This document shows positions 1 to 51,382 of a stretch of DNA of 64,000 nt, in pieces. Under the pieces are notes generated by a model. The model was not told the origin of the DNA. It did not search any database and worked only from the letters and a program-made list of their open reading frames with translations. Both the position numbers and the translations under genes were made by a program. The stretch's first letter is position 1, and every line of letters starts with the position of its first letter. Source of the stretch: an uncultured Thermoplasmatales archaeon (lineage in GTDB: Archaea > Thermoplasmatota > E2 > UBA202 > DSCA01). The stretch lies in contig CAZESS010000002.1 of the NCBI GenBank assembly GCA_964514975.1, forward strand, positions 24,958 through 88,957, read 5' to 3'.

Positions 1-1519
1 CTTCATCGGAAATCGAGATTGTTTTGACGGTAAATTCCTTTTTTATTCGCGGGAATACAAGTCCGTAAGTTATCACGACGCGATTATGGCGCAGGCCACG
101 GTTGCGGTGATATGCTTGGTACATTTCGTTATCGAACAGGATTTGTTGCAACCATTCCCCCATGAATATGGGTTCATCGTTGCCCAAATATCCATCCGCG
201 CTGTTCTGATGTATTCTATGTGCATCGCATTTTTTCGCGATTTCGCGGCTGCAAATTTTCTTCTTTATTTCGTCAATTGGTTTGTATAATAATTTCGCCA
301 TATACTCATGAATCACATCTTCGCTGATTGCATATGTTCCCAAAATAACAAGTGCGTCTTTATCGGCGAATTGGTTGCTGCTGCGAAGGTTACCAAAATA
401 TTCGCCGTTTATCAACGAATCATCGACAACCTCTTTATGCCCGATTATACCGATGTTGCCATCGCCAAATATTTGCCTCAAATGCTGCAAATCAGGAACC
501 AACCAATCGTCAATTGAATCACGATGGTAGATAAAACTTCGCCGTGGTCGATAACCTCTTGGTCGTAACCGATAAACATGCGTGTCCTTGTTTTGCCATT
601 TCGATGTGAATATTTGCACATTGACATCGCGGTTGAAACCAATTTCGCCGTTATATGCTTCCAATAAAAAATGAAAAAACTTGCGATGGAACGTTGCATC
701 AAGAAACACGAGCGGCACACCCTCCTTAACAAGGTCAAATGCATTATAATACAATGGCACGTGATATTCACGGTCGTAATCGTCATATCGCCGCGCCCAC
801 CATAAATAGTCCCAAATATTGGGCGCGCTATTGGAGAGCAAATGCTTTATTTCCTTCTCTGATGCATCGTTTTCTATGGCGGTTCTGACCGCTTGCTGAT
901 GATGACCGCTCACCGCTACCTCACCGATATAATACCACGTGGATGAAGTGAAATCGCCGGTTTCCATTGATGCAATATTATGTTCGCTTTCACCAATCGC
1001 GCGCATCCAATCGACAACGGCATCCCTATCGAATTCGAGCGTGTCCATCGCGATCTTATTTTCGTCGAAGAACGCGATTGTAGGATATGGTTCAATATGC
1101 TTTGTTTTTAGATATTCATACGGCGCGAATACGCGCTCTCGCTCATCGAATTGCTGTTTATATCGGCAATTGCTACGATTACATAATTCACATAAAACAC
1201 CAATAGGCAACCCTCGTTCACGCCGTGCATCAACGCCTTCGTTCCATTCGCATTTGCGGCCAAATCCTTCCCAATGCGAATAGTGGTAATCGCTGATACC
1301 CATATCCGCTATTATCTCGTCGATTGTGTCATGACGGTCGGTAAAATAAAACGCATCGGGCTGCGTTTTCATGTATTGCATAACCGCATAGGTTTTGCCG
1401 ATGCCGGGCTGATGCGCCAAAACGGTTATGTCTGCATCCAAATCGTCAAAATCGACATCCTGCGGCTCGCACATTTCTGTTTCCAAAAACGTTATGCCGT
1501 CGCTGCATGTTTCGCGCAT
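1..1519 (-). CDS. P-loop NTPase, putative Fe-S-cluster (Rad3/XPD-like?) helicase, 3'-truncated by window edge
   Basis: Continuous minus-strand frame from ATG at 1519 (in-frame TAG just upstream) to position 1; not in the ORF track because no stop lies in the window. Walker A 'AHQPGIGKTYAV', Walker B-like 'IAFFDENK', and a Cys4 cluster (C-x20-C-x2-C-x4-C) between them. AT-rich codon usage unlike the GC-rich flanks. Confidence 0.55.
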   Translation of the reverse strand, partial: MRETCSDGITFLETEMCEPQDVDFDDLDADITVLAHQPGIGKTYAVMQYMKTQPDAFYFTDRHDTIDEIIADMGISDYHYSHWEGFGRKCEWNEGVDARRERGLPIGVLCELCNRSNCRYKQQFDERERVFAPYEYLKTKHIEPYPTIAFFDENKIAMDTLEFDRDAVVDWMRAIGESEHNIASMETGDFTSSTWYYIGEVAVSGHHQQAVRTAIENDASEKEIKHLLSNSAPNIWDYLWWARRYDDYDREYHVPLYYNAFDLVKEGVPLVFLDATFHRKFFHFLLEAYNGEIGFNRDVNVQIFTSKWQNKDTHVYRLRPRGYRPRRSFIYHRDSIDDWLVPDLQHLRQIFGDGNIGIIGHKEVVDDSLINGEYFGNLRSSNQFADKDALVILGTYAISEDVIHEYMAKLLYKPIDEIKKKICSREIAKKCDAHRIHQNSADGYLGNDEPIFMGEWLQQILFDNEMYQAYHRNRGLRHNRVVITYGLVFPRIKKEFTVKTISISDE

Positions 1520-1595
1520 TGTATCGTGTTGTTGTGCGTAATGTGGTGGCGATACAAATAACTAATCAATCGCACTTTTGGTATAATAAAGAACA

Positions 1596-2009
1596 TCACA
1601 AGGTTCGTGAGAGCAGGAATAACCATAGCGGGATAAACAATAAGGGAAAAACTGTACCCAACCAAAAATTTGCTGCCGCAAGTATGCCCAATCGTGCAAA
1701 TTTTCTATTTTCACGAGATTGTTTGTAATCTTCATCGAGTTTTTCTATTCTACATTTGATATCTTCAATCTCGCCTCGCTGACGATTCGATACGAACCAA
1801 AAAATTGCCGTAATTACTGTGCCAATTACCGCTATAGCAAAAGAAACTCCGTTTTCTCTTAATGAATCAATTCCAAAAGATGAAATATACGACAAAACGA
1901 GCAGTGATTCAGCGACAAGTAATAAATTTATTCGATTCGTAAAGAGGTTGTCAGCATGTAACAAATATCGCCAACGACGTTCTAATAAATTTTCATCATC
2001 ATCTATCAT
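1596..2009 (-). CDS. small integral membrane protein (3-4 predicted TM helices), unknown function
   Basis: ORF-track 137 aa; hydrophobic stretches 'LLLVAESLLVLSYISSF', 'AIAVIGTVITAIFWFV', 'LGILAAANFWLGTVFPLLFIPLWLFLL'; AT-rich; directly upstream (same strand) of the helicase-like gene. Confidence 0.5.
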   Translation of the reverse strand: MIDDDENLLERRWRYLLHADNLFTNRINLLLVAESLLVLSYISSFGIDSLRENGVSFAIAVIGTVITAIFWFVSNRQRGEIEDIKCRIEKLDEDYKQSRENRKFARLGILAAANFWLGTVFPLLFIPLWLFLLSRTL

Positions 2010-2116
2010 GCCATAATTAATGTAAAACGGTAAAAAAACCTATCGCACATATTCATAAAAAATATAATATCAATTACATTCTCAGAAAAATTTCACGCGC
2101 CGCTTACTACGACATC

Positions 2117-2200
2117 GCGTTGTTTCGCTGCGGACAAAAAACAGTATACGAATCACGACAACGACAACGAATCGGCTTGACGCGCATCGTTGGTGTCGTA
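2117..2200. repeat. 84-bp direct repeat, copy A ('gcgttgtttcgctgcgg...gaatcggcttgacgcgc...')
   Basis: About 85% identical to 3410-3493; lies about 155 bp upstream of the ATG at 2355. Confidence 0.7.
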
Positions 2201-2354
2201 TGTGCAGCATACTTTACATTTAAACCATAGGGTGCAAATAGAAATCATACGATAAACGAGTGATTCATATCAAACAGCGCTTAACTTTTTTATTTAAAAA
2301 ACGTAAATCAAAAATACTATAATTTTGATATACGATACACATTATGTGGTTTAG

Positions 2355-3365
2355 ATGCCGGCAAAAAAATTTAACAGAAATCCTTTCAACGAGAAATTAA
2401 TACATAGATTTTTTTTCGAAACTCTTTATTGCGACAAGCAAAATCGCGATTTACTTGTTCCATCAAACATTAAGCAAGATCTAAAAAAACTAAACCTCGT
2501 TGTTCCCGAAGCATCTATTGTCGAAGGCGGATATCGACCGGATTTTAAATTGTATTTTAAGGGTATGGAAAAAACGGTGGCAGTCGAAATAAAGTGGCAC
2601 TCTAAAGATTTAAAAGAAAATCAAAAAGAAGCTCTTATCGGTGACACGGATACAAATGGAAACAGGGGATACGTTCTGAGTTTTGATGACGAAGATATCG
2701 AGGTTGAACATGTACAAATTGACAAAGAATTATTTGAAAATTGGCTTATCAAGCGAGTTAAATCGCTATGGAATGATGCATATTCCTATAAAATCGAAAA
2801 ACAAATTGGTAAACGAACTTGGATTGTTATTTTGAGGGGAAAATCAATACAAAATTTTCAAAAAATGGTCAAACAACATCGCGATAATTTTTGGGCATTC
2901 CAAAATACTCCGTTTATAATGAAAAATTTATTAGAAATAAAGCATAGAGATGAAATCATTTTCTTATTAGTAAAAGCAAGCGGAAATGAAAGACAGGCAT
3001 TACAGCGAGATTCGAGAGAAAAGTTAGATGTGCTCTCATTCTTTGTCGGCAACATAAAAGAACCTTATGTTATGTATCTGAAAGGCCCTAAAGCAACGTT
3101 TTTTGAGGGCAGGGACGACTTATCGGTCAACAACAGGAAATGGCCTCATTTTATTGAATTTACAGAGGAAGCATATATGAAATTCGAACAAAACGCCTGC
3201 ATAAATAGGAACAACTTTTCAAAATCCCTCAGGAAAAAAATTGCCGATTCATGTAACAAAAAAGGAAAAGGAATTCCAATATTACTTGATGATATTGAAG
3301 CAAACGAACTTAAATCTGAACTTAGACTCGAGTGTAATCGCCTTAATAAGGTAGTTGCAATATAA
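2355..3365 (+). CDS. PD-(D/E)xK (restriction-endonuclease/Hjc/NucS-like) nuclease domain protein with uncharacterised about 200-aa C-terminal domain
   Basis: N-terminal 'EASIVEGGYRPDFKLYF...VAVEIKW' fits the E...PD...(E/V)EIK nuclease signature; 336 aa; AT-rich; bracketed by the 84-bp direct repeats. Confidence 0.5.
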   Translation: MPAKKFNRNPFNEKLIHRFFFETLYCDKQNRDLLVPSNIKQDLKKLNLVVPEASIVEGGYRPDFKLYFKGMEKTVAVEIKWHSKDLKENQKEALIGDTDTNGNRGYVLSFDDEDIEVEHVQIDKELFENWLIKRVKSLWNDAYSYKIEKQIGKRTWIVILRGKSIQNFQKMVKQHRDNFWAFQNTPFIMKNLLEIKHRDEIIFLLVKASGNERQALQRDSREKLDVLSFFVGNIKEPYVMYLKGPKATFFEGRDDLSVNNRKWPHFIEFTEEAYMKFEQNACINRNNFSKSLRKKIADSCNKKGKGIPILLDDIEANELKSELRLECNRLNKVVAI

Positions 3366-3409
3366 CCTGCATACCAAAAAATTTTTTCCGAGTTACTTGC
3401 TTAGATACT

Positions 3410-3493
3410 GCGTTGTTTCGCTGCGGATGAAAAACATTATACGAATCGCGACTTCGACGGCGAATCGGCTTGACGCGCGTCGATAGTGTCGTT
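3410..3493. repeat. 84-bp direct repeat, copy B
   Basis: About 85% identity to 2117-2200; about 153 bp upstream of the RHH gene ATG at 3646. Confidence 0.7.
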
Positions 3494-3645
3494 AGTAGGC
3501 GATAGTTGCCACCAAAACCATGGGTTTGTATGTCGAATTCTACGCGGTTCACGCGGTTTCGTAAGTCGTTGGCATCGTACGCCACATACACGTTCCATAC
3601 AGCGCCGAAGAATTGCTTTTTTATGTGCATAAAGAATCGAGAATC

Positions 3646-3957
3646 ATGGCATCGAAAAAAACCCGTACCACGATTTCGATACCGCGCGATCTGCGCGACG
3701 CGGCGAAGGAAGAGGGCATCAACATATCGCGATTTGTAACCGAGCGATTACGCGAATTTTTCGCAGAAAGACAAATTTTCTCCGGAGCCAGTTACTCGGG
3801 TTCAAATCCCGATATGCCCGTTTGCCGCGACCATAGGGGCCATGGCGGCACTGGAAAGGCAGATAGAGATGGTACAAAAGGATGTGGAGGTTCGGAAGGC
3901 GTACCTCTATCTGCCCCCCGTGTATATCAACCGTACGAGCTATTTAATCATTGTTAA
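3646..3957 (+). CDS. ribbon-helix-helix (CopG/Arc/MetJ-type) DNA-binding protein with low-complexity C-terminal tail
   Basis: 'MASKKTRTTISIPRDLRDAAKEEGINISRFVTERLREFF' has the beta-strand/helix/helix RHH pattern; downstream tail is Gly/Ser/Arg-rich. Confidence 0.55.
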   Translation: MASKKTRTTISIPRDLRDAAKEEGINISRFVTERLREFFAERQIFSGASYSGSNPDMPVCRDHRGHGGTGKADRDGTKGCGGSEGVPLSAPRVYQPYELFNHC

Positions 3958-4164
3958 CATCTGGGCTATGACCATGGATTGCTCGCGGTGTCGTCATCCA
4001 GAAGGCCGATGCCATGGCGAACGAGCAATAATGGCCCGCAGCGCCGGGAAACGTTTATATATGAGTGTGTCTTACGCCCCACCGGGGAAGGGTGAACGCC
4101 TCCACCCTCTTTTTGTGCCTCCCCCTTCCCCATGCCTCCCTTTTTAGCCAGTGACAGGCACGAT

Positions 4165-9336: not shown

Positions 9337-10131
9337 TTATTCGTCGCTGACGAGGGCATACCAGTCATCGGCGTTCCGGGCTTTTTTAAGGCGTTTCTCA
9401 GCGAGCCGTGGCCGGTAAAATCCGGAAACAAACCGCGGCAGACTGTAATAATCCGTTCTGTCGGAAGACAGGGGGAAACTCTCCCATATCCATTCATCCG
9501 GCAGATCAGGATGGGCGGCTTCGAAGCCTTTCGCCCAGGCGACGAAGCCCCACCCGGCGACCTGCTCCACGGTTTCATGAGAAATGTCCTGGACGAGTGC
9601 GAGCACCTCAAGAAGCAGGTCGACGTCCTGTATTTCTAGGTGTGGTGTGGTCCCAAGATAGGATTCGGTTTCCCGGTACCGCGTATGCTCCTCGATGCAG
9701 TGGAGAAATGCCTGTGGCGTAGGCGCCGTCACTATATCAAGCCATGGGCGGCTTCGGAGCCCTACGGTAGCGAGGAAGCGCCGAATCTTCAGGGGAACGG
9801 CATCCAGCCGGGGGTCTGACCATCCTGGCTCAAATGTGCCCTCCATCCCTCTACATTTCTCTGCCAGCGAGGGTGTGTGTTTCACATAACATGCAAGGGC
9901 GTAGACATGTTTGCAGGGAAACATCTCGTCCGGACAACTGCACGAAGAGGTATGGACCGGTGTGAGAGCTATCTGGACATCATAGTTATGGGTACCCCTG
10001 ACTGTAGCCCTGATGTATCTGTCGTCGATACTGATGTTTCCGACCTGCCCCTGCTCAAAATACGTTCTACCTCTCTCAGCTCGTCCACCCTGCCGTGTCG
10101 TGAGTTTTATAAGCCATGCTGTTTGAGACAT
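9337..10131 (-). CDS. SWIM zinc-finger domain protein
   Basis: 'CSCPDEMFPCKHVYALACY' matches the CxC...CxH SWIM motif. Confidence 0.6.
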   Translation of the reverse strand: MSQTAWLIKLTTRQGGRAERGRTYFEQGQVGNISIDDRYIRATVRGTHNYDVQIALTPVHTSSCSCPDEMFPCKHVYALACYVKHTPSLAEKCRGMEGTFEPGWSDPRLDAVPLKIRRFLATVGLRSRPWLDIVTAPTPQAFLHCIEEHTRYRETESYLGTTPHLEIQDVDLLLEVLALVQDISHETVEQVAGWGFVAWAKGFEAAHPDLPDEWIWESFPLSSDRTDYYSLPRFVSGFYRPRLAEKRLKKARNADDWYALVSDE

Positions 10132-10144
10132 GCAGCCCCCTCGT

Positions 10145-10585
10145 TCACTCCAAAGGTTGATACTGTTCGGGCGGTATCCCGGTTTTGTCTACCACTATAA
10201 TGGTACCGTCCGACGAATCGGCTTCTTCAGTATTCAGTAGCTTGGTGACGAAATGCCATTCGTCCCCATAATCGAAGAGATAGAGCATCTTTTTTCCTTT
10301 CCGGTCATATACCTCCTCTACAGTGGTTTCCTCAACGCTGCCATAATCGCTCTCCATGTCCATGTCTGCGAAGAGCTCGTATCCCTCCTCCGCTTCCGTG
10401 TATCGTGGCGCGTCATAGAACCCGAAAGGATGGTCGAAGTGGAAGCCAATGCTGTCATTTATCGCCCTCGCAAAACGATACAGTGTTGTGTCCCCGGGCA
10501 TCCTGAATGTTCTCGAAACCACTCCCTCAACCTTGCCGAACGAGTCAGCCATGGTCACTTTCACGAGCAGCATATTCTGAGGCAT
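10145..10585 (-). CDS. plasmid pRiA4b ORF-3-like family protein
   Basis: 'MLYLFDYGDEWHF' matches that family's hallmark; adjacent to the SWIM protein, a commonly seen pairing. Confidence 0.5.
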   Translation of the reverse strand: MPQNMLLVKVTMADSFGKVEGVVSRTFRMPGDTTLYRFARAINDSIGFHFDHPFGFYDAPRYTEAEEGYELFADMDMESDYGSVEETTVEEVYDRKGKKMLYLFDYGDEWHFVTKLLNTEEADSSDGTIIVVDKTGIPPEQYQPLE

Positions 10586-10656
10586 AAAAGAGTAAATGGT
10601 GTGCGTTGCTAAATATCTTTACCCCGTACGGGAGACCATGGTTTTCTCCTCGCTGG

Positions 10657-10842
10657 CTACTTGTCGGAGAACAGCTCGCCGGCGTGCCCCCAGTTGGAGG
10701 GCTCTATCTCGCGGATGATGACGTAGACGGAGCCCGGGTCCTTGCCGGCGACGTCTTGCAGCGTTCGGGTGAAACGGCGGGTTATCTCGGCTTTTTGCTG
10801 GTGGGACAGCCTGCCCAGCGTTTTGAGTTCCACAACTGGCAT
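10657..10842 (-). CDS. 4-oxalocrotonate tautomerase family protein
   Basis: 61 aa, N-terminal 'MPVVELKTL' (Pro1 after Met removal), 'VYVIIREIEPSNWGHAG'. Confidence 0.8.
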   Translation of the reverse strand: MPVVELKTLGRLSHQQKAEITRRFTRTLQDVAGKDPGSVYVIIREIEPSNWGHAGELFSDK

Positions 10843-10875
10843 ACTGCTGTATCACATCCGGGTATTCAAGCTTTG

Positions 10876-11505
10876 CTACACGACATCAAGCAGCCGGATG
10901 CCATCCACGGCCAGCCATCCGGCCATGACGAGGAGGAGGACGGCCAGCAGCCGGGCAACCAGCCGGTAGCCATGGCCGACGAGGAGCCGACGGGAGCGCG
11001 ACGCCAGGATGGCGACGGCGAGCTTAGCGCCGATGAGACTGCCGTAGAACGCGATGAGGAAGACAACCGCGGTCCCGGCATCGCTCATCCAGGCGTCGAC
11101 CAGGAGCGGGGCGCCCACCGAGAACCAGAAGAGATAGGGATTCGGGTTGAGCACGTTGGCGGCGATGCCCTTGAACAGCGACCGCGGCGGCTCGTCATCC
11201 GCCGGGATTTCAACGGAGAAACTCCGGTATGCAAGATAGCAGAGAAACAGGCTGCCGGTAAGCGAAATGGCGCCCAGGACGCCGTGGAACGCAGCCAGCT
11301 GGGCGAGCACCAGGACCGTAATGGCAACGATGGGGGCATCGCTGAACAGCGGAGCAACGGCGACGCGCATGCCCGCCCGACGGCCATGCCGGATGGCTTC
11401 GCTGACCACCAAGGTGAGCAACGGGCCGGGGAGCAGACCCGCGGGCAGCCCGAGCGCGATGCCTTTGACCAGCAGGGCCAGGTGGGGTTCCATGGGTGGC
11501 AACAT
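10876..11505 (-). CDS. LysE/RhtB-type amino-acid exporter
   Basis: About 200 aa with 6 TM helices; 'GIALGLPAGLLPGPLLTLVVSEAIRHGRRAG' resembles the LysE family N-terminus. Confidence 0.6.
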   Translation of the reverse strand: MLPPMEPHLALLVKGIALGLPAGLLPGPLLTLVVSEAIRHGRRAGMRVAVAPLFSDAPIVAITVLVLAQLAAFHGVLGAISLTGSLFLCYLAYRSFSVEIPADDEPPRSLFKGIAANVLNPNPYLFWFSVGAPLLVDAWMSDAGTAVVFLIAFYGSLIGAKLAVAILASRSRRLLVGHGYRLVARLLAVLLLVMAGWLAVDGIRLLDVV

Positions 11506-19948: not shown

Positions 19949-20692
19949 TTATAGCGAGCCGCGCGTGGCTGCCTCGCTGCATGTGCAGTCCCGCTTTTCG
20001 GGGAGCGCCGACGCCGTCCGGAGCAGGATGCCGACGGCGACGTCGCGCATTTCCTCGTAGATAGAGGCGATCTCGTCGGCGGTGAGGCCCGTCTGCAGGC
20101 CGGCGGCCATGTTTGAGACGACGCAGAGCGACGCGTAGCAGATGCCCGCCTCCCGGGCCAGCGTTGCCTCGGGGCCAAGGGTCATCCCCACGACGTCGCC
20201 GTGCTCCTGGAGCATCGCTATCTCCGCCGGTGTCTCAAAACGGGGCCCGGCCGTGGTGATGTATACGCCCTCTGACACGCTGCCCTCCGAGCTGGCCGCG
20301 TCGAGTAACAACTGCCTCGTTTCGGGGCAAAACGGCTCGGTCATGTCGACATGGACGGGCGCATCGTCATAAAACGTGGCGATGCCGGTGAAGTCGATGA
20401 AATCACCGGGAACGACGAGGCCACCGGGCTGCACGCCCTGCCGCATCGAGCCCACGGTGCTCACCGCCAGGACATGGGTGGCGCCGCAGGATGCGAGCGC
20501 CCGGATGTTGGCATGGTGGCTTATCCGGTGGGGCGGGATACCATGGGTGGCGCCGTGCCGGGGGAGAAAAAACAGCTCGCGGTCGTCGTGCTCGACGCGG
20601 GTGACCGTGACCGCACCGTACCGAGTCTCTACCTCGAGGGCGTTTCCCTGCATGTCGTAGATGCCGGTGCCGCCGATGATGCCGATGCGCAT
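19949..20692 (-). CDS. mtnP: S-methyl-5'-thioadenosine (purine nucleoside) phosphorylase
   Basis: 'MRIGIIGGTGIY', 'HGATHGIPPHRI', 'MTLGPEATLAREAGICYASL'; start set at MRIGIIGG. Confidence 0.8.
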   Translation of the reverse strand: MRIGIIGGTGIYDMQGNALEVETRYGAVTVTRVEHDDRELFFLPRHGATHGIPPHRISHHANIRALASCGATHVLAVSTVGSMRQGVQPGGLVVPGDFIDFTGIATFYDDAPVHVDMTEPFCPETRQLLLDAASSEGSVSEGVYITTAGPRFETPAEIAMLQEHGDVVGMTLGPEATLAREAGICYASLCVVSNMAAGLQTGLTADEIASIYEEMRDVAVGILLRTASALPEKRDCTCSEAATRGSL

Positions 20693-20772
20693 AGACGTGC
20701 AACACGCCCCGCCATATATAAACATGTGTTTTTCACAATAGTTAAATAGGGGCGCCGCTTACACCAATAGCC

Positions 20773-21158: not shown

Positions 21159-21533
21159 GTGGTTGTAGATGGTATGTCGGTGGCAGGCAGGCGGTATGGC
21201 GTCTGGAAGGCGCAGGTCAACTGGCTCGGCGGCAAGATAGACGTGTCGCCATACTGGCGGCTTGCGCTCCCCGCCTGGCTGCTCCCCGCCCTGGTCGGCG
21301 AGTGGACGGTCCAGTGCATGGGCGGCCAGGTCATCGGGCTTATCGCCGGCGGCAGCGTGTCGCTGCTGAAAAGCTACCATGACTTTTACCGGCTGATGGG
21401 TGCCTATGTGCCGATGCTCACCGAAAAAATACGCTGGCGGCGGATCGCCATCGTCATCATATGTGTCATGCTGGCCATCATGACCCTGCTGCTCCTCGAC
21501 GTCAACCCGGTCGCCGGCCTCCTCAACCGTTAA
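21159..21533 (+). CDS. hypothetical membrane protein
   Basis: Two to three hydrophobic helices; no motif recognised. Confidence 0.3.
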   Translation: MVVDGMSVAGRRYGVWKAQVNWLGGKIDVSPYWRLALPAWLLPALVGEWTVQCMGGQVIGLIAGGSVSLLKSYHDFYRLMGAYVPMLTEKIRWRRIAIVIICVMLAIMTLLLLDVNPVAGLLNR

Positions 21534-21560
21534 GCCAGGTTTTTTTATACCCGGCGGTGT

Positions 21561-22124
21561 TTGCCCGGCGTGGACATTGTCACCGTTGTATTGATCGCCG
21601 TCGCCCTGGCCATGGACGCCTTCGCGGTCGCCGTTGCCAGCGGGCTCTACATCCACAGGCTGCGTGTCAACCATGCCCTGCGCATCGCGGGTATGTTCGG
21701 CCTGTTCCAGGGAGCGATGCCCCTGGCCGGCTGGCTCGCCGGACGGACAGCGCAGCGGCTCGTGGCGGCAATCGACCACTGGCTGGTGTTCGCGCTGCTG
21801 GCGGGCATCGGCGGAAAAATGGTCTACGAGTCCTGGCGGCTCGACGAACGCCGGGGATTTGACCCGCTGGCCATGTCGTTTTTGCTGCTGCTTTCCATTG
21901 CAACATCCATCGACGCGCTAGCCGTCGGCGTCTCCTATGGCCTGCTCGACGTCGCCGTCGCCACACCCGCCGTTATCATCGGCGCTGTCACCTTTGGGCT
22001 CTCTCTTGCCGGCGTCTACCTGGGCGACCGGGTCGGCCATCTCTTCGAACGCCGCATCGAGGCTCTCGGCGGCGTCATCCTCATCGTTATCGGCCTCCGC
22101 ATACTGATAGAGCATCTGATGTAA
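21561..22124 (+). CDS. mntP: manganese efflux pump MntP
   Basis: 'VALAMDAFAVAVASG' and repeated 'SIDALAVGVSYG' halves typical of MntP/DUF204. Confidence 0.8.
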   Translation: MPGVDIVTVVLIAVALAMDAFAVAVASGLYIHRLRVNHALRIAGMFGLFQGAMPLAGWLAGRTAQRLVAAIDHWLVFALLAGIGGKMVYESWRLDERRGFDPLAMSFLLLLSIATSIDALAVGVSYGLLDVAVATPAVIIGAVTFGLSLAGVYLGDRVGHLFERRIEALGGVILIVIGLRILIEHLM

Positions 22125-22145
22125 GAAAACAGGGTGGAGGAAGGC

Positions 22146-22649
22146 CTACGGACTTTCAAGACCGATAAGCCAAATCGGCACCTGGATAATATACCTCAGA
22201 TGAGGCAGATATTTTTTGACCTTATCGAATCTCATGCTTCCTCGCCAAGTTGGGTCATACTTTTTCTCAATTAATTTTTGAAATTGACGTGTTGTAACTA
22301 TGTAGATACCTACGTCTATCTCGTTTCTGTATGAATAGGAGAGAGTTTGGAATTTCAACAAATCTATTCCCATAAAAGAGGGGTGAGAGAAAGCGACCTC
22401 GACCCCAACCCGGTTTTTCATAAAATCTATCTTTGCAGCGGGCTCATCCTCCGGGGCAAACACGGGCTGTTCGGTTTTCCATCCTTTTCCGGTAAAACTG
22501 TCCTTGAATGCCTGATTTAGATTCGGCCTCGTCATTTCGTTTGGATTCAAATCAATCGTGTCGATAATTTCTTTTACTTCCTGTTTTTGTGCCAGTCGGC
22601 TATTCAAGACTTCTTCTGCAAACCGATACGACCAGTCTCTATATCGCAT
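22146..22649 (-). CDS. BglII/BamHI-fold type II restriction-endonuclease-like protein (orphan; catalytic Gln/Glu position is Ala)
   Basis: 'KIDFMKNRVGVEVAFSHPSF...NEIDVGIYIVTT' parallels BglII 'DIDFGKRDTLVEVQFSNYPF...MKVAIIITKG' and BamHI 'RVGMEFETGNISS...EIDLAIILMP'. AT-rich island; no methyltransferase nearby. Confidence 0.5.
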   Translation of the reverse strand: MRYRDWSYRFAEEVLNSRLAQKQEVKEIIDTIDLNPNEMTRPNLNQAFKDSFTGKGWKTEQPVFAPEDEPAAKIDFMKNRVGVEVAFSHPSFMGIDLLKFQTLSYSYRNEIDVGIYIVTTRQFQKLIEKKYDPTWRGSMRFDKVKKYLPHLRYIIQVPIWLIGLESP

Positions 22650-22947
22650 TATTTCTTTCCCGTTCTAGATAAAGTTTTTCTTGAATGAAATCTGCTGTAA
22701 CCGATGAATATGGAGATTGATATCTCACTGAATTATCTTGCTTAATCTTTTTGACCAAGCCGGCAGAAACCATCTTTTCCAGCGATTTAAACACCGATGC
22801 ACGATATTTGATAGGAAAATTCTCTCCCTCAAGCTCATCCAATATTTCTTGGACGGTTTTTGCCTTGTCGATAATCACTCGAAGGATTTGCCGGGCTGAT
22901 GACAACGACGAGATATCAAGCGTATCCTGAAAGTCCGGTTCTTCCAT
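22639..22947 (-). CDS. winged-helix DNA-binding protein (putative controller/regulator)
   Basis: 'YRASVFKSLEKMVSAGLVKKIKQDNSVRYQS' wHTH pattern; 11-nt overlap with downstream endonuclease-like gene. Confidence 0.45.
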   Translation of the reverse strand: MEEPDFQDTLDISSLSSARQILRVIIDKAKTVQEILDELEGENFPIKYRASVFKSLEKMVSAGLVKKIKQDNSVRYQSPYSSVTADFIQEKLYLERERNNAI

Positions 22948-23038
22948 CTAGTGGACAAATGCTATTAAAAGATCTTAACACTTTGTTTCTTTATAGGAAA
23001 CAAAACATCATTTTTCTACTGGCGATAAAGAACCGGAC

Positions 23039-23910
23039 ATGAACGAGCTCGGCTTGAGTCTGAAATTAAATTGGACATACCCGAATATGGGTGTATTTTA
23101 TTCTGAAAAACCGCCCTTACGAGGAACATTTAATGAGAGACTTGAAAAAGCTAAAAAATTCGGCATCTCCCGCATAGAAATACCCTTTGATCTGGTTCGA
23201 CTAGAAAACGAGGAATATTATCTATTGAATAAAAAAAAATTGGAGACATCCCAGAAAGAGAAGACTTTAAAAGTCTCTACAACACCAGTTGCAATAATAC
23301 CTGTGAGTATATTCTACATACAGACCCGGAGCTAAAACCCCGCCATTACTTAAGATGGAACTCGGAGAAGTGGAGAAATAAGTACCTGAAATCTATCATA
23401 GATTTTGCAGAATTCAACGACCAAGCCCCTTTCGCAGTAGAGTTCCATCCAGGCAGAACGTCAAGAAGCAAAAATCATTTTGAGGATTTTATTACCGATG
23501 CGATTTCAATGTTTAGCGATATCTTCGGAGATAAACGTCCCTATCTTTACATCGAAAACAGAACAAATCTATACATCTCTACAGTCGAAGACATCATTCA
23601 GTTGTATGAGAAAATTCAGGATAGAGTAAGTGGAACTGAAAAGAAGCGTTTCGGATTTAGCATAGATGTTATGCAGCTTTATTCGCAAATTGGAGCAGAA
23701 TCAATCAATGAGCTCCCGAAAATTCCTAGACACGCGATAAAAAACTGGCATATCCATTACCGCCACCAACCACCTAGCATCGATGACCCAATAGATTGGC
23801 GTAAAGTTGTAAACTATATCATGCAAAGTCAGCCGGCCATTGTTTTACCAGAGGTATTTTCAGATCGAGGTGTACAAACCACTCTTGAATTCATCGAAGG
23901 TTTACCATAA
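23039..23910 (+). pseudogene. xylose-isomerase-like TIM-barrel (AP-endonuclease family 2-like) protein, split by frameshift at an A9 tract
   Basis: ORFs 23039-23335 (frame 2) and an open frame 23233-23910 (frame 1; track ORF 23509-23910) join into about 290 aa if the A9 run at 23231-23239 gains one A. 'AVEFHPGRT' and 'FGFSIDVMQLY' resemble Endo IV 'LLNFHPGSH' and 'GVCIDTCHAF'. Confidence 0.45.
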
Positions 23911-23945
23911 TTATTACAATTACATATAACCACTTAACCCTCCCT

Positions 23946-23986
23946 CGATTTTGTTTCAAAAGTTTAACAAATATGTCAAATTAACC
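23946..23986. repeat. about 40-bp direct repeat R2a ('gattttgtttcaaaagtttaacaaatatgtcaaattaacc')
   Basis: About 80% identical to 24097-24137. Confidence 0.55.
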
Positions 23987-24013
23987 GAATGGTAAAACAA
24001 TCATTGCCCTGGC

Positions 24014-24070
24014 CACTAACACCTATATTTCCTCCCATTCTTTGAGGATGCTCTGCCAGTTGAACTCCTC
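24014..24070. repeat. 57-bp direct repeat R1a: duplicated 3' end of gene 25570-26799
   Basis: 56/57 identical to 25561-25617, which encodes the last 17 codons (...EEFNWQSILKEWEEI*) of the membrane gene. Confidence 0.8.
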
Positions 24071-24096
24071 CGCGTGCGGACAACGGCTGCCCCGTG

Positions 24097-24137
24097 ATTT
24101 GTTTGAAAAATTTAACAAAAATGTTAAATTAGTGGAG
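24097..24137. repeat. about 40-bp direct repeat R2b immediately upstream of abiEii-like gene
   Basis: 'gatttgtttgaaaaatttaacaaaaatgttaaattagtgg'; contains TATA-like 'tttaacaaa'. Confidence 0.55.
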
Positions 24138-24149
24138 TGATTATGGGGT

Positions 24150-24968
24150 ATGGCAGTGTGGAATGACATCGTTACGGCTGGCCGGAGCAGCGACCAGCCG
24201 CTCCATCACGTATTCCAGGAGCATCTGCAGAAAACCGTGCTGACGGCGCTCAGCCGGAGAGAGGCGTTCACCGACATCGTGTTCCAGGGTGGGACAGCCC
24301 TCTGCTTCTTCTACGGCAACCCCCGCTTCTCGGAAGACCTCGACTTCGTACGCCGGGGCAGCAGTACAGTAGACCTGACAGCCCACGCCACGGCGGTAGA
24401 AACCTTCGTAGCCGCCATCTATCCCTTCCTCGACGGATGCAGCGTCACGGTCCAAAAAGACACGCGGGAGCTACAGCGGCTCGTGCTCACCACCCGGGGC
24501 GAGGTCACAGAGCAGCGCTGCCGCATCCACCTCGAGCTAGCACACGTTCCATCCTACATGGCAACCCCACGCATCCTCGATCATCCGCCGTTTCACCCTG
24601 CGGTGCAGGTGGAGCAGCCCGAGGAAATCCTGGCGGACAAGCTGGCAGCGCTCGCCCTTCGCCCGTATCTCAAGGGCCGCGACCTCTGGGACATCTACTT
24701 CCTGACCAGGGAAAAAAACATCGATATCCACTGGAATCTGGTGAAGACAAAAATCAGCGATTACAACGGCGACCCGGAGCGGCTTCCTGCAGCCAGCAAA
24801 ACCGTGCAAAACGAGGGTGCACAGGCGCTCGCGGACGAGCTGGCCCGGTTTTTGCCTCCTCGTCTTCACGAGCAGTACCGCTCCAGATTCGACGATATCG
24901 CCGCTCATGTCGCCGCCGTCGCAGCCGCAGCCAGAGACACAATGGAGGAGAACGCCGATGAAGGTTGA
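24150..24968 (+). CDS. AbiEii/DUF1814-family nucleotidyltransferase (type IV TA toxin-like)
   Basis: 'FQGGTALCFFYGNPRFSEDLDF' is the AbiEii nucleotidyltransferase signature; 272 aa. Confidence 0.7.
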   Translation: MAVWNDIVTAGRSSDQPLHHVFQEHLQKTVLTALSRREAFTDIVFQGGTALCFFYGNPRFSEDLDFVRRGSSTVDLTAHATAVETFVAAIYPFLDGCSVTVQKDTRELQRLVLTTRGEVTEQRCRIHLELAHVPSYMATPRILDHPPFHPAVQVEQPEEILADKLAALALRPYLKGRDLWDIYFLTREKNIDIHWNLVKTKISDYNGDPERLPAASKTVQNEGAQALADELARFLPPRLHEQYRSRFDDIAAHVAAVAAAARDTMEENADEG

Positions 24969-25566
24969 CGAATGGCTGGCGTTCTTCCGTCGGCACCGGA
25001 CAAAAAAACTGTTTTCCCTGGCAGATCTCGTCCAGCTCACCGGTATAGACAAGGCGTCGCTCTCGGTCCAGCTCACCCGGCTGATACGGGCCAACATCAT
25101 CCGGCGGGCAGCCCGGCAGTGGTACGAAAACCCGTTCAACCAGCCATCCCGGGAAGACGTCGCCATGGTGCTCCGTCCTCCCGCCTATCTCTCCCTGGAA
25201 TACGCTCTCTCAAAACATGGCATCCTGAGCCAGGCAGCCCGCACGCTCACCCTGGCTACCACACGGCCTCCCTACACATATACCACATCTGATGCAACAT
25301 ACGAATACCACCAGATACGGCGGTCGCTCTTCTGGGGATATAAACAGGAACACGATGTTGCGCTGGCCGAGCCCGAAAAAGCGCTGCTCGACCTCCTCTA
25401 CATACGGCACGTAATGACCGATGAACTGAGCCAGCGCGCCCTGGGGTCGCTCGTCGACGACATGGACCTCGCAGTCATCACCCGGGACAGACTCCGCCGC
25501 TATGCAGACAGATTTCCCCGCGGGGTCAATGAAACGGTGCGCCACCTGACGCCTGCCGTACACTAA
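24958..25566 (+). CDS. AbiEi-like antitoxin/transcriptional regulator (N-terminal wHTH)
   Basis: 'LFSLADLVQLTGIDKASLSVQLTRLIRANIIRR' wHTH; 11-nt overlap with the upstream nucleotidyltransferase gene; about 200 aa. Confidence 0.6.
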   Translation: MKVDEWLAFFRRHRTKKLFSLADLVQLTGIDKASLSVQLTRLIRANIIRRAARQWYENPFNQPSREDVAMVLRPPAYLSLEYALSKHGILSQAARTLTLATTRPPYTYTTSDATYEYHQIRRSLFWGYKQEHDVALAEPEKALLDLLYIRHVMTDELSQRALGSLVDDMDLAVITRDRLRRYADRFPRGVNETVRHLTPAVH

Positions 25567-25617
25567 CGCCTATATTTCCTCCCATTCTTTGAGGATGCTC
25601 TGCCAGTTGAACTCCTC
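25561..25617. repeat. 57-bp direct repeat R1b (native 3' end of gene 25570-26799)
   Basis: Partner of 24014-24070. Confidence 0.8.
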
Positions 25618-26799
25618 GACGGCCGGGATGGCCTCCAGGCGGCGGATGATCCGCTCGTAGCCCTTGCCCAATGTCCGGATGCGTATCTTGGCCATCATGT
25701 CATATTCGCCGGCCAGCGCCGACACCGATGCCACACCGCGGATACGCCAGATCTCGTCGAGCAGCTCGGCCATCCGGTAGCCAGGTCTTGCATTGATGAA
25801 CACATAGGCCTTGACCTCGGTCAGCGCAAACGAGGACACGCCCAGGATGACCAAGGTGATGCCCATGAGCTTGAACGCGAGCAGCGACGGCGACGCCGAA
25901 AACGAAAAATCAAGCACGCCGGACAGCGCCAGCGACAGCGGGATGCTGAAAATAATCGTCGACGCCTTGACCGCCTGGGTGATGCTGGCCTTGCCGATGC
26001 CCAGCGCCCGGATGTACAGGATGTATGAAAAAAAGATGACGGCCATCGTGGCAGCCAGCCGGGGAAACGTGTCGCCGACGGTTGCCAGTGCCTGATGGAA
26101 AAAGGCGGGCCGGTAGAGGTAGACCGCCACGGTGATCATCCCCGCCGTGAACAAAACGTTCCATGTCCTGATGTTGACGGCGTCGTTCGGCCGGTCGTCG
26201 ACGACTAAATGTTTGAGCTTTCGCTGGTAGACCGCCAAAACGACCCATGCCGGGTTCATCACCAGAAAGATGACGAGCAATGCATCGACGTTCAGCGAGC
26301 CGGTCAGCGACATCGCCGCCATGATGGCGCCGAAGGTCACGATGACCGATGACTCTATCTCGGCCAGCGTCGGCGCGTCTTTTTCCGACAGCGACTCCGC
26401 GACCAGCAGATACAAAATGACGATCTGGAAAAACGGGAGCACCGTCGACGGGTCAACAAACACCGATACCAGATAAAAATGCGACAATGTTACCACGGTG
26501 TTGCCAAGCCCCGCGAGCACATGGTACCCGAGCTCATGCCGGCGGAGCATACGCAGCCGGCGGAACGAGGGATCAACCCGGGCGCCCAGGCTCCGGCCCT
26601 TCCAGGGCAGCGAGAGCACGCCGGCGATGGTCAGCGTGACCGGTATCCCGGCCACCATGACCGCCATCCCGAACACCCATGAGTTCTCTATGTAGAGATG
26701 AGAAATGATGCCGTCCAGCGACGCAGAAATGGCGCCCAGCACCGAGGAGACCAGGAGCAGCACGTAGAACAGGTATTTTTTCCTGATGCGAAGGTTCAT
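25570..26799 (-). CDS. polytopic membrane protein (EamA/DMT-like, about 10 TM) fused to C-terminal Lrp/AsnC-type ligand-binding (RAM) domain
   Basis: Multiple TM helices; C-terminal 'AELLDEIWRIRGVASVSALAGEYDMMAKIRIRTLGKGYERIIRRLEAIPAVEEF' resembles the AsnC C-domain. Confidence 0.5.
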   Translation of the reverse strand: MNLRIRKKYLFYVLLLVSSVLGAISASLDGIISHLYIENSWVFGMAVMVAGIPVTLTIAGVLSLPWKGRSLGARVDPSFRRLRMLRRHELGYHVLAGLGNTVVTLSHFYLVSVFVDPSTVLPFFQIVILYLLVAESLSEKDAPTLAEIESSVIVTFGAIMAAMSLTGSLNVDALLVIFLVMNPAWVVLAVYQRKLKHLVVDDRPNDAVNIRTWNVLFTAGMITVAVYLYRPAFFHQALATVGDTFPRLAATMAVIFFSYILYIRALGIGKASITQAVKASTIIFSIPLSLALSGVLDFSFSASPSLLAFKLMGITLVILGVSSFALTEVKAYVFINARPGYRMAELLDEIWRIRGVASVSALAGEYDMMAKIRIRTLGKGYERIIRRLEAIPAVEEFNWQSILKEWEEI

Positions 26800-27044
26800 A
26801 CTGCTATCTCTTTCTCGATCACCGTCGTCGTCGTCCGCTTGATGTTGCCGACCATCTGGATACGGTCGGTGATCTCCATCAGCTCCTCCAGCGACTCGAC
26901 GGCGACCTTGACGATGACGTCGTAGTCGCCCGCGGTGACCGCGATGCTCTCGATGTTGTCGATGCCCCGCAGCTTGCTGAGCACCTCCTCGAGCTTGCCG
27001 ACATAGACCAGGATCATGATATAGGCCTTTATCACCATAGACAC
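26796..27044 (-). CDS. stand-alone Lrp/AsnC ligand-binding (RAM) domain protein
   Basis: 82 aa; 'IESIAVTAGDYDVIVKVAVESLEELMEITDRIQMVGNIKRTTTTVI'; ATGA overlap with downstream transporter gene. Confidence 0.55.
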   Translation of the reverse strand: MSMVIKAYIMILVYVGKLEEVLSKLRGIDNIESIAVTAGDYDVIVKVAVESLEELMEITDRIQMVGNIKRTTTTVIEKEIAV

Positions 27045-27508
27045 CTCGGCATGGTATAGCCCGCGGTATTTAAAACATTGCCCGGTTTTTCAAGGCTCCG
27101 GTGCAAGCAGGTCCGCCAGCTCAATCGTCCGATACGGCACCATGCATGGATGCCCCGGACATACGGGGCGTAGCGGTCGCGAAGCAGAGCTGCCTCCTGT
27201 CGGCCATGGTCGTACCATGACGATGCCGTGATATGTGTTACCGGAGCCCCGGTGTCTGCCTCGCCGTGGGTTTCCGGGGTATAGGGGACAGGACTGCCGG
27301 ATGGCTCGCGGTCATCCCGGCATTGCCAGGCGGGCTGCTGCATCGTGGCCAGCGGCATGAGGAGCATTAATAGGATGGCGGCCACGACGACGTGTCTATG
27401 GCGCATGGACACCTGTTTCCATCCCGGGCATTCAATGTGGTGGACGCCACCGTGGTTATAACCGTTGCCGGTGCAGGTATGATACGGAGCCTGCCCTGGA
27501 TGCGACAC
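27032..27508 (-). CDS. hypothetical protein (possible signal/TM at internal Met 'MRHRHVVVAAILLMLLMPLA')
   Basis: ORF-track only; no motif; true start uncertain. Confidence 0.2.
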   Translation of the reverse strand: MSHPGQAPYHTCTGNGYNHGGVHHIECPGWKQVSMRHRHVVVAAILLMLLMPLATMQQPAWQCRDDREPSGSPVPYTPETHGEADTGAPVTHITASSWYDHGRQEAALLRDRYAPYVRGIHAWCRIGRLSWRTCLHRSLEKPGNVLNTAGYTMPRCLW

Positions 27509-49470: not shown

Positions 49471-49780
49471 TGGTAGGGTATGAAAGCGAGCTACTTAAAT
49501 CTTTGCCGCCCTGTCAGGGGTTGGGGGGCAAAAAAACCGGGCGGCTCTCCCGGGTGTACTGTGGGGACAATGCCGGGGCCAGCGGCGCCATGTAAACGTT
49601 TGCTCCATAGATGCTATAGCCTCTATAGCCGTATGCCGGAAAACGTTAATATCCAGCGATGCACGGCGAGAGAGAAGGGCAGGGCGGGTGGACAAGAAGA
49701 GGTATCCCAGTATGCGCTGTGGCATATATCCCTGCCCCGGGTGTATATGCGGCGGGGATTCATTAATATTGCGCCATCCG

Positions 49781-49848
49781 ATGCTGGAGGTGGGAATCGA
49801 ACCCACCTGTGCCATCGGGCAGACGACGGGGATTGCTGCCCGCTCCAG
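49781..49848 (-). ncRNA. tRNA-like element (T-arm GGTTCGATTCC + 7-bp acceptor pairing) lacking a canonical D-arm; possible tRNA pseudogene or integration remnant
   Basis: Minus strand 'GCTGGAG CG GGGCAG-CAATCCCCGTCGT-CTGCCC GATGGCACAG GTGGGTTCGATTCCCAC CTCCAGC A'. Only 36 nt between acceptor and T-arm; C8/G9 instead of U8. Confidence 0.3.
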
Positions 49849-49927
49849 CAGCAATACCATGCCCGGATGTTAAAAAATGTTGCGATGGGCACGTATTTTT
49901 ATAAACCACCTGGTGTTATATGCAGGT

Positions 49928-50059
49928 ATGACAACCTGTCCAGGCTGCAACACGGACAATCCCGCCGGGGCGAAGTTCTGCATGGAATGCGGGACGCCGT
50001 TACCGCAGAAAAAGACGTGCGGTGATGAATCATGGGATGAAAGCGCGGGTGGCCCGTAG
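49928..50059 (+). CDS. small zinc-ribbon protein
   Basis: 'MTTCPGCNTDNPAGAKFCMECGTPLPQKK...' has CPxC...CxxCG double zinc-ribbon spacing. Confidence 0.35.
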   Translation: MTTCPGCNTDNPAGAKFCMECGTPLPQKKTCGDESWDESAGGP

Positions 50060-50195
50060 CGCCCCTGCTTTCGGGATGTGCTGATGATTCATTGTATGAC
50101 GGCGCATGCTAGATGACGGAGGTCGTGTAGTTGCTGTATGCACTTTGTAGGGATGGCCGGAATATTTATATATTAAATTAACAATTGTTTATTAA

Positions 50196-50599
50196 ATGAG
50201 TAATGGCACGCAGCGTATCATCCTCCTCATCGAAGACGACCCGGCCATCCAGGAACTCCTCGACATGCAATTCACATCGCTCAACGTCAAACTATACCGG
50301 GCACAGGGCGGCCTCGAAGGAGTACAGCGCTACCGGGAGCTGCACGCCGCGCTGGCAAACGACCCGACCTGGTCATCATGGACATCAAACTGCCGGCCAT
50401 GAACGGCATCGAAGCAACCAAAAAAATAAAAGAAATAGACGACAGCGCCGTCATCTACGGGTTCACCGCCTTCGCCTCCGTCAAAGGCAAAGAACTCCGG
50501 CAGGCGGGCGCCCAAAAAGTCATCCCCCGCACCCATGGGTTCAAGGCGCTCCGGGACATCGTCATCTCCTCTATCCACGCCCGACCACCGTCAACATGA
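50196..50599 (+). pseudogene. CheY-like response-regulator receiver domain gene with frameshift
   Basis: 'RIILLIEDDPAIQELL...LHAALANDP' (frame A) continues as 'DLVIMDIKLPAMNGIEATKKIKEIDDSAVIYGFTAFASVKGKELRQAGAQKVIPR' in the -1 frame from about 50375; canonical DD...D...MDIxMP...K receiver signature. Confidence 0.55.
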
Positions 50600-50882
50600 T
50601 GTCGCGGCGCTATTGCTGCATACCTATTTCGCTTTTTCCCGGTTCTCCATTCCGAGCATGTAGCCGCCCAGACCCCTCAGCCAAAAAAGAATCGAATACG
50701 CCACCCACCGCTCGGTTCCCCCGCCACCTCTATATGTTTCTGCATAAACGAGCGGAGCTTTTCATGCATGGTGCCGGCCCTCTTCTTATGTTATAGCCAT
50801 ATTATCTGCAAACCTTATGTCCTCGGGACAAAAATACAACATACCGGCCCTTGGATACAGCGGCATGGGAAGCAAAAAATAG

Positions 50883-51013
50883 TGCTCCCGTCGGGATTCG
50901 AACCCGAGTCCTCGGCTCGCTCCGAACCTTTTTTGGATGTGAAGCACCTTTTCTAAAGGGGCGCAAGGGTTCTCGAGAGGCCGAGATGATTAACCGGACT
51001 ACACTACGGGAGC
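50883..51013 (-). tRNA. tRNA-Glu (anticodon CTC) with about 56-nt intron at the canonical 37/38 position
   Basis: Minus strand: acceptor GCTCCCG/CGGGAGC, D-arm 'GTGTAGTCCGGTTAATCAT' (archaeal tRNA-Glu-like), anticodon stem TCGGC/GCCGA, loop CTCTCG|intron|A, T-arm TCGGGTTCGAATCCCGA. Intron about 50918-50973. Confidence 0.65.
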
Positions 51014-51055
51014 AGTCCACCCCCGTAATACGTTGTACTTTTTATCATTTTTGCA

Positions 51056-51296: not shown

Positions 51297-51382
51297 GCTG
51301 AGGTGGCCGAGTCCGGACCAAGGCGGTAGCCTCGAGAGCTACTGGGCCATTGGCCCTCGCAGGTTCAAATCCTGCCCTCAGC
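51297..51382 (+). tRNA. tRNA-Ser (anticodon CGA), class II
   Basis: Acceptor GCTGAGG/CCTCAGC, anticodon stem GTAGC/GCTAC with loop CTCGAGA, variable hairpin GGGCC/GGCCC, T-arm GCAGGTTCAAATCCTGC. Confidence 0.75.

Follow-up and report, generated by a model that had tools for sequence, protein, structure and literature searches.

An AbiE-family toxin-antitoxin cassette in a variable defense-gene slot of uncultured Thermoplasmatota, and the duplicated gene end beside it

The stretch of DNA analyzed here (the window) comprises 64,000 nucleotides (nt) of contig CAZESS010000002.1 from an uncultured Thermoplasmatales archaeon. In it, an AbiEii-AbiEi toxin-antitoxin (TA) operon and its predicted palindromic promoter/operator form a discrete ~1.45-kb cassette, which sits in a variable defense-gene slot 3' of the gene for a conserved membrane protein with a C-terminal Lrp/AsnC (RAM) domain, here called the membrane-RAM gene. 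Comparison with related genomes shows that the cassette has long been resident in this slot across related Thermoplasmatota and has been swapped between lineages, the proximal crossover falling in the highly conserved final ~50 nt of the membrane-RAM gene. The end of this gene is present twice, as a 57-nt direct repeat (R1) whose copies, R1b in the gene itself and R1a on the far side of the operon, bracket the TA genes. We favor, with only slightly better than even confidence, the explanation that the repeat is the scar of a cassette exchange by ordinary recombination, in which a new module came to lie beside an old one that has since been gutted.

A toxin-antitoxin cassette in a variable slot

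AbiEii proteins are growth-arresting nucleotidyltransferases, and AbiEi proteins both neutralize AbiEii and repress the operon. An earlier note on this DNA had seen AbiEii-like and AbiEi-like genes between the repeats and no integrase among them, and profile searches bear this out, the two TA genes being the only genes between R1a and R1b. The first product matches Pfam PF08843 (1.5e-27, 97.5 bits against a cut-off of 22.5) and the PADLOC AbiEii profile (1.7e-43), and it has 297 homologs at an E value of 1e-20 or below. The second matches PADLOC AbiEi (1.1e-29) over positions 3 to 182 of a 199-position profile; in Pfam it has only sub-cut-off matches, to AbiEi_4 (0.0029) and MarR_2. The public gene calls of three relatives (L020 to L022) contain an AbiEi product of identical length, 202 amino acids (aa). 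The gene order is AbiEii followed by AbiEi, toxin first, which is the opposite of canonical AbiE. This order is also found in relatives that are 52 to 53% identical (L025 4001-5390, L027 4001-5426, and L029 4001-5391), and it looks like the mark of a distinct subfamily in Thermoplasmatota.

The earlier note had also described a second repeat of about 40 bp around R1a. This pair (rep2a and rep2b) is present, with 30 of 34 positions matching without gaps and a length of ~42 to 46 nt when one indel is allowed. The copy directly upstream of AbiEii, rep2b, holds a perfect 9-N4-9 palindrome, AATTTAACA-N4-TGTTAAATT, at 24109-24130 and gives a folding z score of -3.2. Its core, AAAAATTTAACAAAAATGTTAAATTAGTGGAG, does not vary among 7 genomes that are 10 to 25% apart in their coding flanks, and the palindrome is retained upstream of the 52 to 53% identical TA relatives at other loci (L025, L027, and L029). 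In known AbiE systems the regulator gene precedes the nucleotidyltransferase gene, and AbiEi of Streptococcus agalactiae autoregulates via inverted repeats in the promoter (Dy et al. 2014, PMC3985639). Because of its position, its conserved palindrome, and the binding of S. agalactiae AbiEi to promoter inverted repeats, rep2b is most plausibly the TA promoter/operator, with AbiEi as its predicted ligand. Judging from what is known of the family, AbiEi would repress the operon via the 9-N4-9 palindrome, and the addictive pair would help to keep the slot.

The window therefore shares with AbiE type IV TA or abortive infection systems (PMC3985639; Beck et al. 2020, PMC7319586) a DUF1814/AbiEii nucleotidyltransferase toxin, a two-domain winged helix-turn-helix (wHTH) AbiEi partner, an overlapping bicistronic operon, and an inverted repeat in the promoter. 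It differs from them in lacking the regulator-first order, in having a single 9-N4-9 palindrome instead of two 23-bp repeats, and in its archaeal host. Apart from its reversed gene order, the TA pair is typical of AbiE systems, and it is located within a small defense hotspot. The third-position GC of the TA genes (0.74) is near that of the host genes (0.78 to 0.86), with 0.37 to 0.46 in the neighboring AT-rich islet, and this suggests long residence in this genome group.

Relatives were assembled from 11 loci in Thermoplasmatota metagenome-assembled genomes (MAGs) found via the membrane-RAM protein, 4 further metagenome contigs found via the R1 core described below, and 5 further contigs encoding AbiEii homologs. 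Look-ups of proteins identical to the window's membrane-RAM, BglII-like, and RAM82 proteins found none on record. The earlier note had labeled the membrane-RAM gene "EamA-RAM"; the RAM domain stands (Pfam AsnC_trans_reg, 2e-06, residues 335 to 403), and the EamA part was not confirmed, there being no Pfam match to EamA even at E < 5. The left-hand synteny of the locus (RAM82, two TrkA-C/PhoU genes, and an FG-GAP protein) is kept with orthologs in L001 to L015 and L020 to L022. In the distant relatives L005 to L009, L012, and L014 the membrane-RAM gene is followed directly by MTAP, and in the window MTAP (19949-20725) lies 4.8 kb from the membrane-RAM gene. Because the two genes adjoin in the distant relatives, all DNA between them is a lineage-specific variable slot, and this ancestral order supports the earlier note's view that the TA pair is an insertion.

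The same TA cassette is found at the same site in at least eight genomes of three clades, and what lies beyond it varies. In L001 the membrane-RAM gene, TA, and promoter are followed by an N6/N4 methyltransferase and a DUF772 transposase; in L024, whose contig ends inside AbiEi, a methyltransferase adjoins the TA promoter; and in L022 the promoter is followed by a PKD-domain gene. In L003 and L021 the gene, TA, and promoter are followed by a second gene end of ~48 nt and then by a GHKL-ATPase-like protein and a B12-binding fragment, respectively. A second R1 copy thus accompanies the TA genes in the window, L003, and L021, whereas L001, L022, and L024 carry the TA genes without one. An empty site of the kind that the earlier note had proposed to look for is present in L004, where the gene is followed by 34 nt, the AT-rich islet, and MntP, with no TA genes and a single R1. 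No TA genes were seen in L002 within the 152 nt visible downstream of its membrane-RAM gene. The earlier note had supposed that the site may have been hit repeatedly, and the cargo agrees, being a BglII-like restriction endonuclease (REase) with a C protein in the window and, in relatives, the methyltransferase with a transposase, the GHKL ATPase, or the PKD gene. Among AbiEii homologs whose proximal flank can be seen, all those that are at least 72% identical (window, L001, L003, L020, L021, and L022) are at this locus, and the next AbiEii relatives are at most 54% identical. The locus has what defines a defense hotspot, namely, conserved flanks with variable, defense-rich cargo among relatives.

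The duplicated gene end and the exchange of alleles

The two copies of R1 agree at 56 of 57 bases, as the earlier note had reported. Their 48-nt core (24023-24070 and 25570-25617, minus strand), which codes for ...EEFNWQSILKEWEEI* and represents the last 15 codons and the stop codon of the membrane-RAM gene, is 100% equal between the copies. The lone mismatch (24021 A versus 25568 G) is within the 3-nt spacer that separates two convergent stop codons. The pair can be stretched without gaps to 66 nt, of which the gene-side part is unconvincing, and if a 3-nt deletion is allowed, R1a might reach 6 nt farther into the AbiEi 3' end, a match too short to be relied upon. No further copy of the core was found in the window, and shuffled sequences gave an expectation of 0 matches. 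The two observations that would have told against the earlier note's insertion, a generic terminator motif at many gene ends or a duplicated 57-mer without TA genes, did not appear: R1 was found nowhere else, and the extra copy was never seen apart from TA genes.

A GAGGAA variant is present in both R1a and R1b and absent from every other genome compared. Beyond the gene's stop codon, R1a has a tail of 9 nt, 8 of which agree with the spacer and the two final codons (CAC TAA) of the window's AbiEi allele; this tail is unlike the sequence downstream of the membrane-RAM gene in the TA-less L004. Because R1a holds the AbiEi stop codon and spacer and not L004-type downstream sequence, it derives from an occupied module. 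Equivalent extra copies of the gene's 3' end are found at L003 8263-8309 and L021 362-409, where they stop at the gene's stop codon and are followed by unrelated cargo; they differ from the functional copies at 2 of 48 and 5 of 48 positions, respectively. A profile search with R1 found exactly one extra copy each in the window, L003, and L021 and none at other cassette boundaries. A run of 11 G occurs at L003 8240-8262, immediately ahead of the extra copy, and may be real or an assembly or sequencing artifact at the junction.

The attC sites of integron cassettes are hairpins at every cassette boundary. An attC-like or terminator-hairpin reading of R1 was considered and rejected, since R1 has no significant secondary structure (folding z scores of 0.05 and 0.49) and no Rfam family was found in 21500-27200.

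The alleles on either side of R1 have different histories. By their TrkA and RAM82 flanks the genomes fall into clade I (window, L013, and L022), clade II (L015, which equals L020, together with L004 and L001), and clade III (L003 and L021). The AbiEi alleles, on the other hand, form one group of the window, L015, and L020 (95 to 98% nucleotide identity) versus another of L013, L022, L001, L003, and L021 (91 to 99%), in which the flanks of L013 and L022 are only 76 to 87% identical to those of L001, L003, and L021, far below the values for AbiEi. The grouping of AbiEii differs from both. The window's membrane-RAM gene is 95% identical to that of L013, and its AbiEi is 95% identical to that of L015. 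In 100-nt windows, identity to L013 is mostly 93 to 99% through the gene and 77 to 88% through most of AbiEi, whereas identity to L015 is 61 to 95% in the gene and 92 to 100% in AbiEi. At base level the switch takes place in R1b, somewhere in its first ~30 nt, which do not vary at all among the compared genomes. The last 16 codons of the membrane-RAM gene also have its lowest synonymous divergence (0.158 versus a median of 0.378; rank 1 of 396 windows). In L001 the membrane-RAM gene (10001-11230) is of the clade I type (88 to 90% identical to the window and L013) and the TrkA flanks are of the clade II type (93 to 94% identical to L015 and L004); because gene and flanks differ in clade type, the host gene beside the slot has itself been exchanged between lineages.

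How the repeat may have arisen

Read in the direction of the membrane-RAM gene, the locus consists of R1b-AbiEi-AbiEii-rep2b, 27 nt of junction, R1a-30 nt-rep2a, motif M, and the islet (Table 1). It is best read as two tandem modules, of which the distal one is without its 1.42 kb of coding sequence; the deletion is a step that we infer. The distal promoter copy, rep2a, has 3 substitutions of its own in the otherwise unvarying core, no longer gives a hairpin signal (folding z score of -0.2), and is unlike rep2b and all other alleles compared. Because of these core substitutions and the loss of the palindrome, rep2a is a decaying promoter relic, and the rep2 pair is not a second pair of attachment (att) sites. 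The junction between rep2b and R1a aligns weakly with its counterpart in L021, and an alignment by hand of the junctions between rep2 and the extra R1 copy in the window, L003, and L021 is likewise weak (~64% over 22 nt). In the TA-less L004 a motif M is found 13 nt past the gene's stop codon, a homology that is only suggestive.

Table 1. Features of the slot and its surroundings in the window
Feature	Position	Strand	Remarks
R1b	25561..25617		Last 48 nt of membrane-RAM gene including stop, 3-nt spacer, and last 6 nt (CAC TAA) of convergent AbiEi
R1a	24014..24070		Non-coding duplicate of membrane-RAM 3' end plus 9 nt past the stop, with AbiEi-type stop codon
AbiEii nucleotidyltransferase toxin, 272 aa	24150..24968	+	First gene of operon
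AbiEi-like antitoxin/repressor, 202 aa	24958..25566	+	Start overlaps AbiEii by 11 nt
rep2b	24098..24131	+	Predicted TA promoter/operator, directly upstream of AbiEii start
rep2a	23950..23983	+	Decayed relic of TA promoter/operator; palindrome with 2 mismatches at 23961-23982
Junction of TA distal end and R1a	24071..24097		27 nt, unique sequence
Filler between rep2a and R1a	23984..24013		30 nt, where an intact module would have the 1.42-kb TA
Motif M, GGGAGGG-TTAAG-like on minus strand	23933..23948		Comes after rep2 in related genomes compared; identified by eye
Conserved membrane protein with C-terminal Lrp/AsnC (RAM) domain, 409 aa	25570..26799	-	3' end is R1b
AT-rich restriction islet	22130..23932		BglII-family REase, wHTH C-protein-like gene, frameshifted gene
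BglII-family REase	22146-22649	-	Pfam Endonuc-BglII, 1.5e-34
Small wHTH C-protein-like gene	22639-22947	-
Frameshifted copy of a 285-aa protein	23039-23910	+	Intact in L004

The exchange that we favor would have begun with an incoming segment that started inside the 3' end of the gene, carried the TA genes and their promoter, and was joined beside an older module. The joining could have been a single-crossover (Campbell-type) insertion of a circularized fragment, or homology could have guided it at one end, the other end being joined illegitimately. The product would have been R1b-TA-rep2b followed by R1a-TA-rep2a, from which the older TA genes would then have been deleted, leaving R1a, 30 nt, and the decaying promoter rep2a. 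Gene conversion or later exchange mediated by the anchor would keep R1a fresh, and no dedicated integrase would be needed at any step.

Several observations weigh against this account. Had a simple Campbell insertion struck a resident module of the beta type, the right half of R1a ought to be beta-type as well, which it is not. The two rep2 copies are 12% apart beside R1 copies that are equal at 56 of 57 bases, so that gene conversion or a later refreshing of R1a by recombination has to be invoked. The 30-nt filler has no significant similarity to the TA coding sequence, with only trivial matches of 5 to 10 nt. The left edge of the extra copy agrees within 1 nt in the window, L003, and L021 (R1 profile positions 4 to 5), while its right edge varies; coinciding left edges are unexpected for random illegitimate joints unless they go back to a single ancestral event, and a site-specific cut would account for them. 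The low synonymous divergence at R1 fits a habitual crossover point but fits an att site equally well. L013, L015, and L020 carry the TA genes on contigs that end in or at the TA, and their distal flanks are unassembled. Finally, a repeat around a distant relative of the cassette, described below, hints that flanking repeats are a trait of the cassette family.

A tandem arrangement could also have come about locally, which we consider unlikely. Unequal crossing-over or replication slippage would have duplicated R1-TA-rep2 in situ and the distal TA would have been deleted, with no incoming DNA at all and with the incongruence of alleles left to separate, later recombination. The succession of R1b-TA-rep2b and R1a-30 nt-rep2a is in keeping with such an event, as are the AbiEi stop codon within R1a and the window-specific GAGGAA variant in both R1 copies. 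A tandem duplication, however, predicts the same sequence after both copies of rep2, and the sequence after rep2b (24071-24089) is unrelated to that after rep2a; when we searched for a donor context of this junction, no second copy was found in the window or at any locus compared. The divergence of the rep2 copies, against less than 2% between the R1 copies, is also unaccounted for by a single duplication, and the extra copies in L003 and L021 stop at the gene's stop codon with unrelated cargo next, which is at odds with an occupied module having been duplicated in situ.

The earlier note had itself read the repeat as the footprint of site-specific integration by a decayed or trans-mobilized element. 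Put in full, the TA pair would be a minimal integrative cassette that enters at R1 with its own copy of the gene's 3' end, R1b and R1a corresponding to attL and attR. Tyrosine-recombinase elements do use att sites at the 3' ends of tRNA or protein genes and regenerate the gene, and the window resembles them in that a direct repeat of the target gene's 3' end brackets the insert and leaves the reading frame intact. The empty site in L004, the identical left boundary of the duplication in three genomes, the crossover inside R1, and the minimum of synonymous divergence there can all be claimed for this explanation. We nevertheless find it distinctly unlikely, and the comparisons have not upheld the earlier note on this point. 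In three genomes (L001, L022, and L024) no second R1 accompanies the cassette at this site, and the TA alleles are internally mosaic, as homologous recombination predicts. No recombinase lies between R1a and R1b, and no integrase or transposase domain was found in the 20 open reading frames of lowest third-position GC in the window. R1 is without detectable structure, including any visible structure of recombinase arms, and the insert measures only 1.5 kb. Close homologs with a visible proximal flank all sit at one locus, and no viral or episomal copies were found: neither R1 nor the AbiEii protein had a match in viral contigs, where the palindrome gave 4 AT-rich matches that we judged to be due to chance.

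Distant relatives of the TA pair bear on this question from both sides. L029, and also L030 and L031, has a perfect 27-nt direct repeat, AAAACAACAAAATGAAAAAATAACAAA, around its TA cassette (L029 3887-3913 and 5448-5474, a spacing of 1561 nt), compared with a longest shared word of 15 nt in 300 shuffles. The TA in L029 to L031 is 52% identical and is found at a different locus in an AT-rich host. L025 and L029 share a cassette of 1480 nt (84% identity), which begins 71 nt ahead of the start codon, ends shortly beyond the AbiEi stop, and lies in different genomic contexts. Because of this, the cassette does relocate as a sharply bounded unit, sometimes with flanking repeats; the repeat around the L029 to L031 cassette and the two contexts of the shared cassette both favor integration, whereas the L025 cassette has no flanking repeat. 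An empty site for the L029 cassette, sought via its HEPN neighbor, was not found, and L032 shares only the HEPN-MNT module, in another context. It is conceivable, though improbable, that the toxin-first AbiE subfamily travels as an integrase-less ~1.5-kb cassette that circularizes via its flanking direct repeats (57 nt here, 27 nt in L029 to L031) and re-inserts at short conserved sequences such as the membrane-RAM 3' end by means of a host-encoded or unrecognized recombinase. If so, it would be an archaeal counterpart of trans-mobilized TA modules.

An element of ~46 nt with a hairpin and a T-run (...GAGGTGTTGGGCACCTC...) is repeated between small defense cassettes in the same relatives (L032 4475-4520, 5368-5413, and 6516-6561; L029 5495-5540). 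The cassettes beside it are a 138-aa gene, MNT-HEPN, and an AbiE pair in canonical order, and the element could be a shared terminator or a cassette-boundary repeat.

Because the window comes from a metagenome-assembled genome, the repeat might also be a false duplication, produced where a contig chains TA-bearing and TA-less strain variants. Co-occurring relatives do share near-identical TA segments, the contigs of L013, L015, and L020 break in or at the TA, and an independent Logan contig (L023) covers 24091-25598 only, without the R1a junction. We regard an artifact as extremely improbable all the same: independent assemblies of other samples have this architecture too, their extra copies being diverged (at 5 of 48 positions in L021 and 2 of 48 in L003); a chimeric path would still require real reads over the 24070/24071 junction; and rep2a, which differs from rep2b and every other allele, is not simply another strain's promoter.

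L023 (a contig of 1508 nt from SRR7048227) is 100% identical to the window over the segment that it covers. Its right end is the point where R1a and R1b begin to share 31-mers, and its left end, at 24091, is ~20 nt short of R1a, with no repeat there. The left end may reflect strain heterogeneity at the distal boundary of the cassette in the SRR7048227 sample.

Neighboring islets and relation to known systems

The earlier note had observed that an AT-rich islet ends at the same spot as the repeats, and the GC profile agrees, with values of 0.35 to 0.45 over about 22050-24150. The same islet directly follows the membrane-RAM gene in L004 (11256-13023; 77% nucleotide identity to the window). No methyltransferase was found beside the BglII-family REase in the window or in L004, and the 285-aa islet protein has no Pfam or PADLOC match. 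The REase may be orphaned, inactive, or guarded by a methylase encoded at another place. Further islets of low third-position GC are located in the window at 478-4147, 9337-10585, and 49480-51249, with no integrase domain in their open reading frames; one holds SWIM and PRiA4_ORF3-like proteins, and one is around and between tRNA-Gly (49780-49850) and tRNA-Ser (51297-51384).

The system belongs to known kinds, the AbiE family and the defense hotspots flanked by core genes (Johnson et al. 2023, PMC10250203; Hochhauser et al. 2023, PMC10121019). Like the latter, it has conserved flanks and variable, defense-rich cargo (TA, REase, methyltransferase, and GHKL ATPase), mostly without mobility genes. 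It differs in being archaeal and metagenomic, in its very small size (0 to 4 kb), and in the duplication of one flank's 3' end inside the slot. The pdif modules of Acinetobacter, with 28-bp XerC/D sites in inverted orientation (PMC6449649), and integron cassettes resemble it as small modules, often TA pairs, that have short recombination sites and enzymes encoded elsewhere. Those systems have a structured site at each boundary, whereas R1 is a coding 3' end, is unfolded, and has one further copy per locus and none at other cassette boundaries. The closest mechanistic parallels to the exchange that we favor are merodiploidy and homology-facilitated illegitimate recombination (Johnston et al. 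2013, PMC3784515; PMC3240628), in which homology anchors incoming DNA on one side, and duplications, hybrid alleles, and new junctions result with no site-specific enzyme involved; these mechanisms were demonstrated in bacteria, and the process proposed here is deduced from sequence comparison only.

The comparison has two by-products: a toxin-first AbiE subfamily with a conserved 9-N4-9 palindrome, which is a candidate AbiEi operator, and, in L029 to L031, a second, independent TA cassette that is flanked by repeats. For annotation it carries a caution, in that more is needed to call an integrase-type element than a direct repeat that restores the 3' end of a gene. The locus provides a case, resolved to the base, in which uncultured archaea retain small defense cassettes and trade them with no dedicated mobility genes involved. 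If the repeat is indeed the scar of such an exchange, a conserved gene end would have served as a portable recombination anchor, leaving its own duplicate behind.

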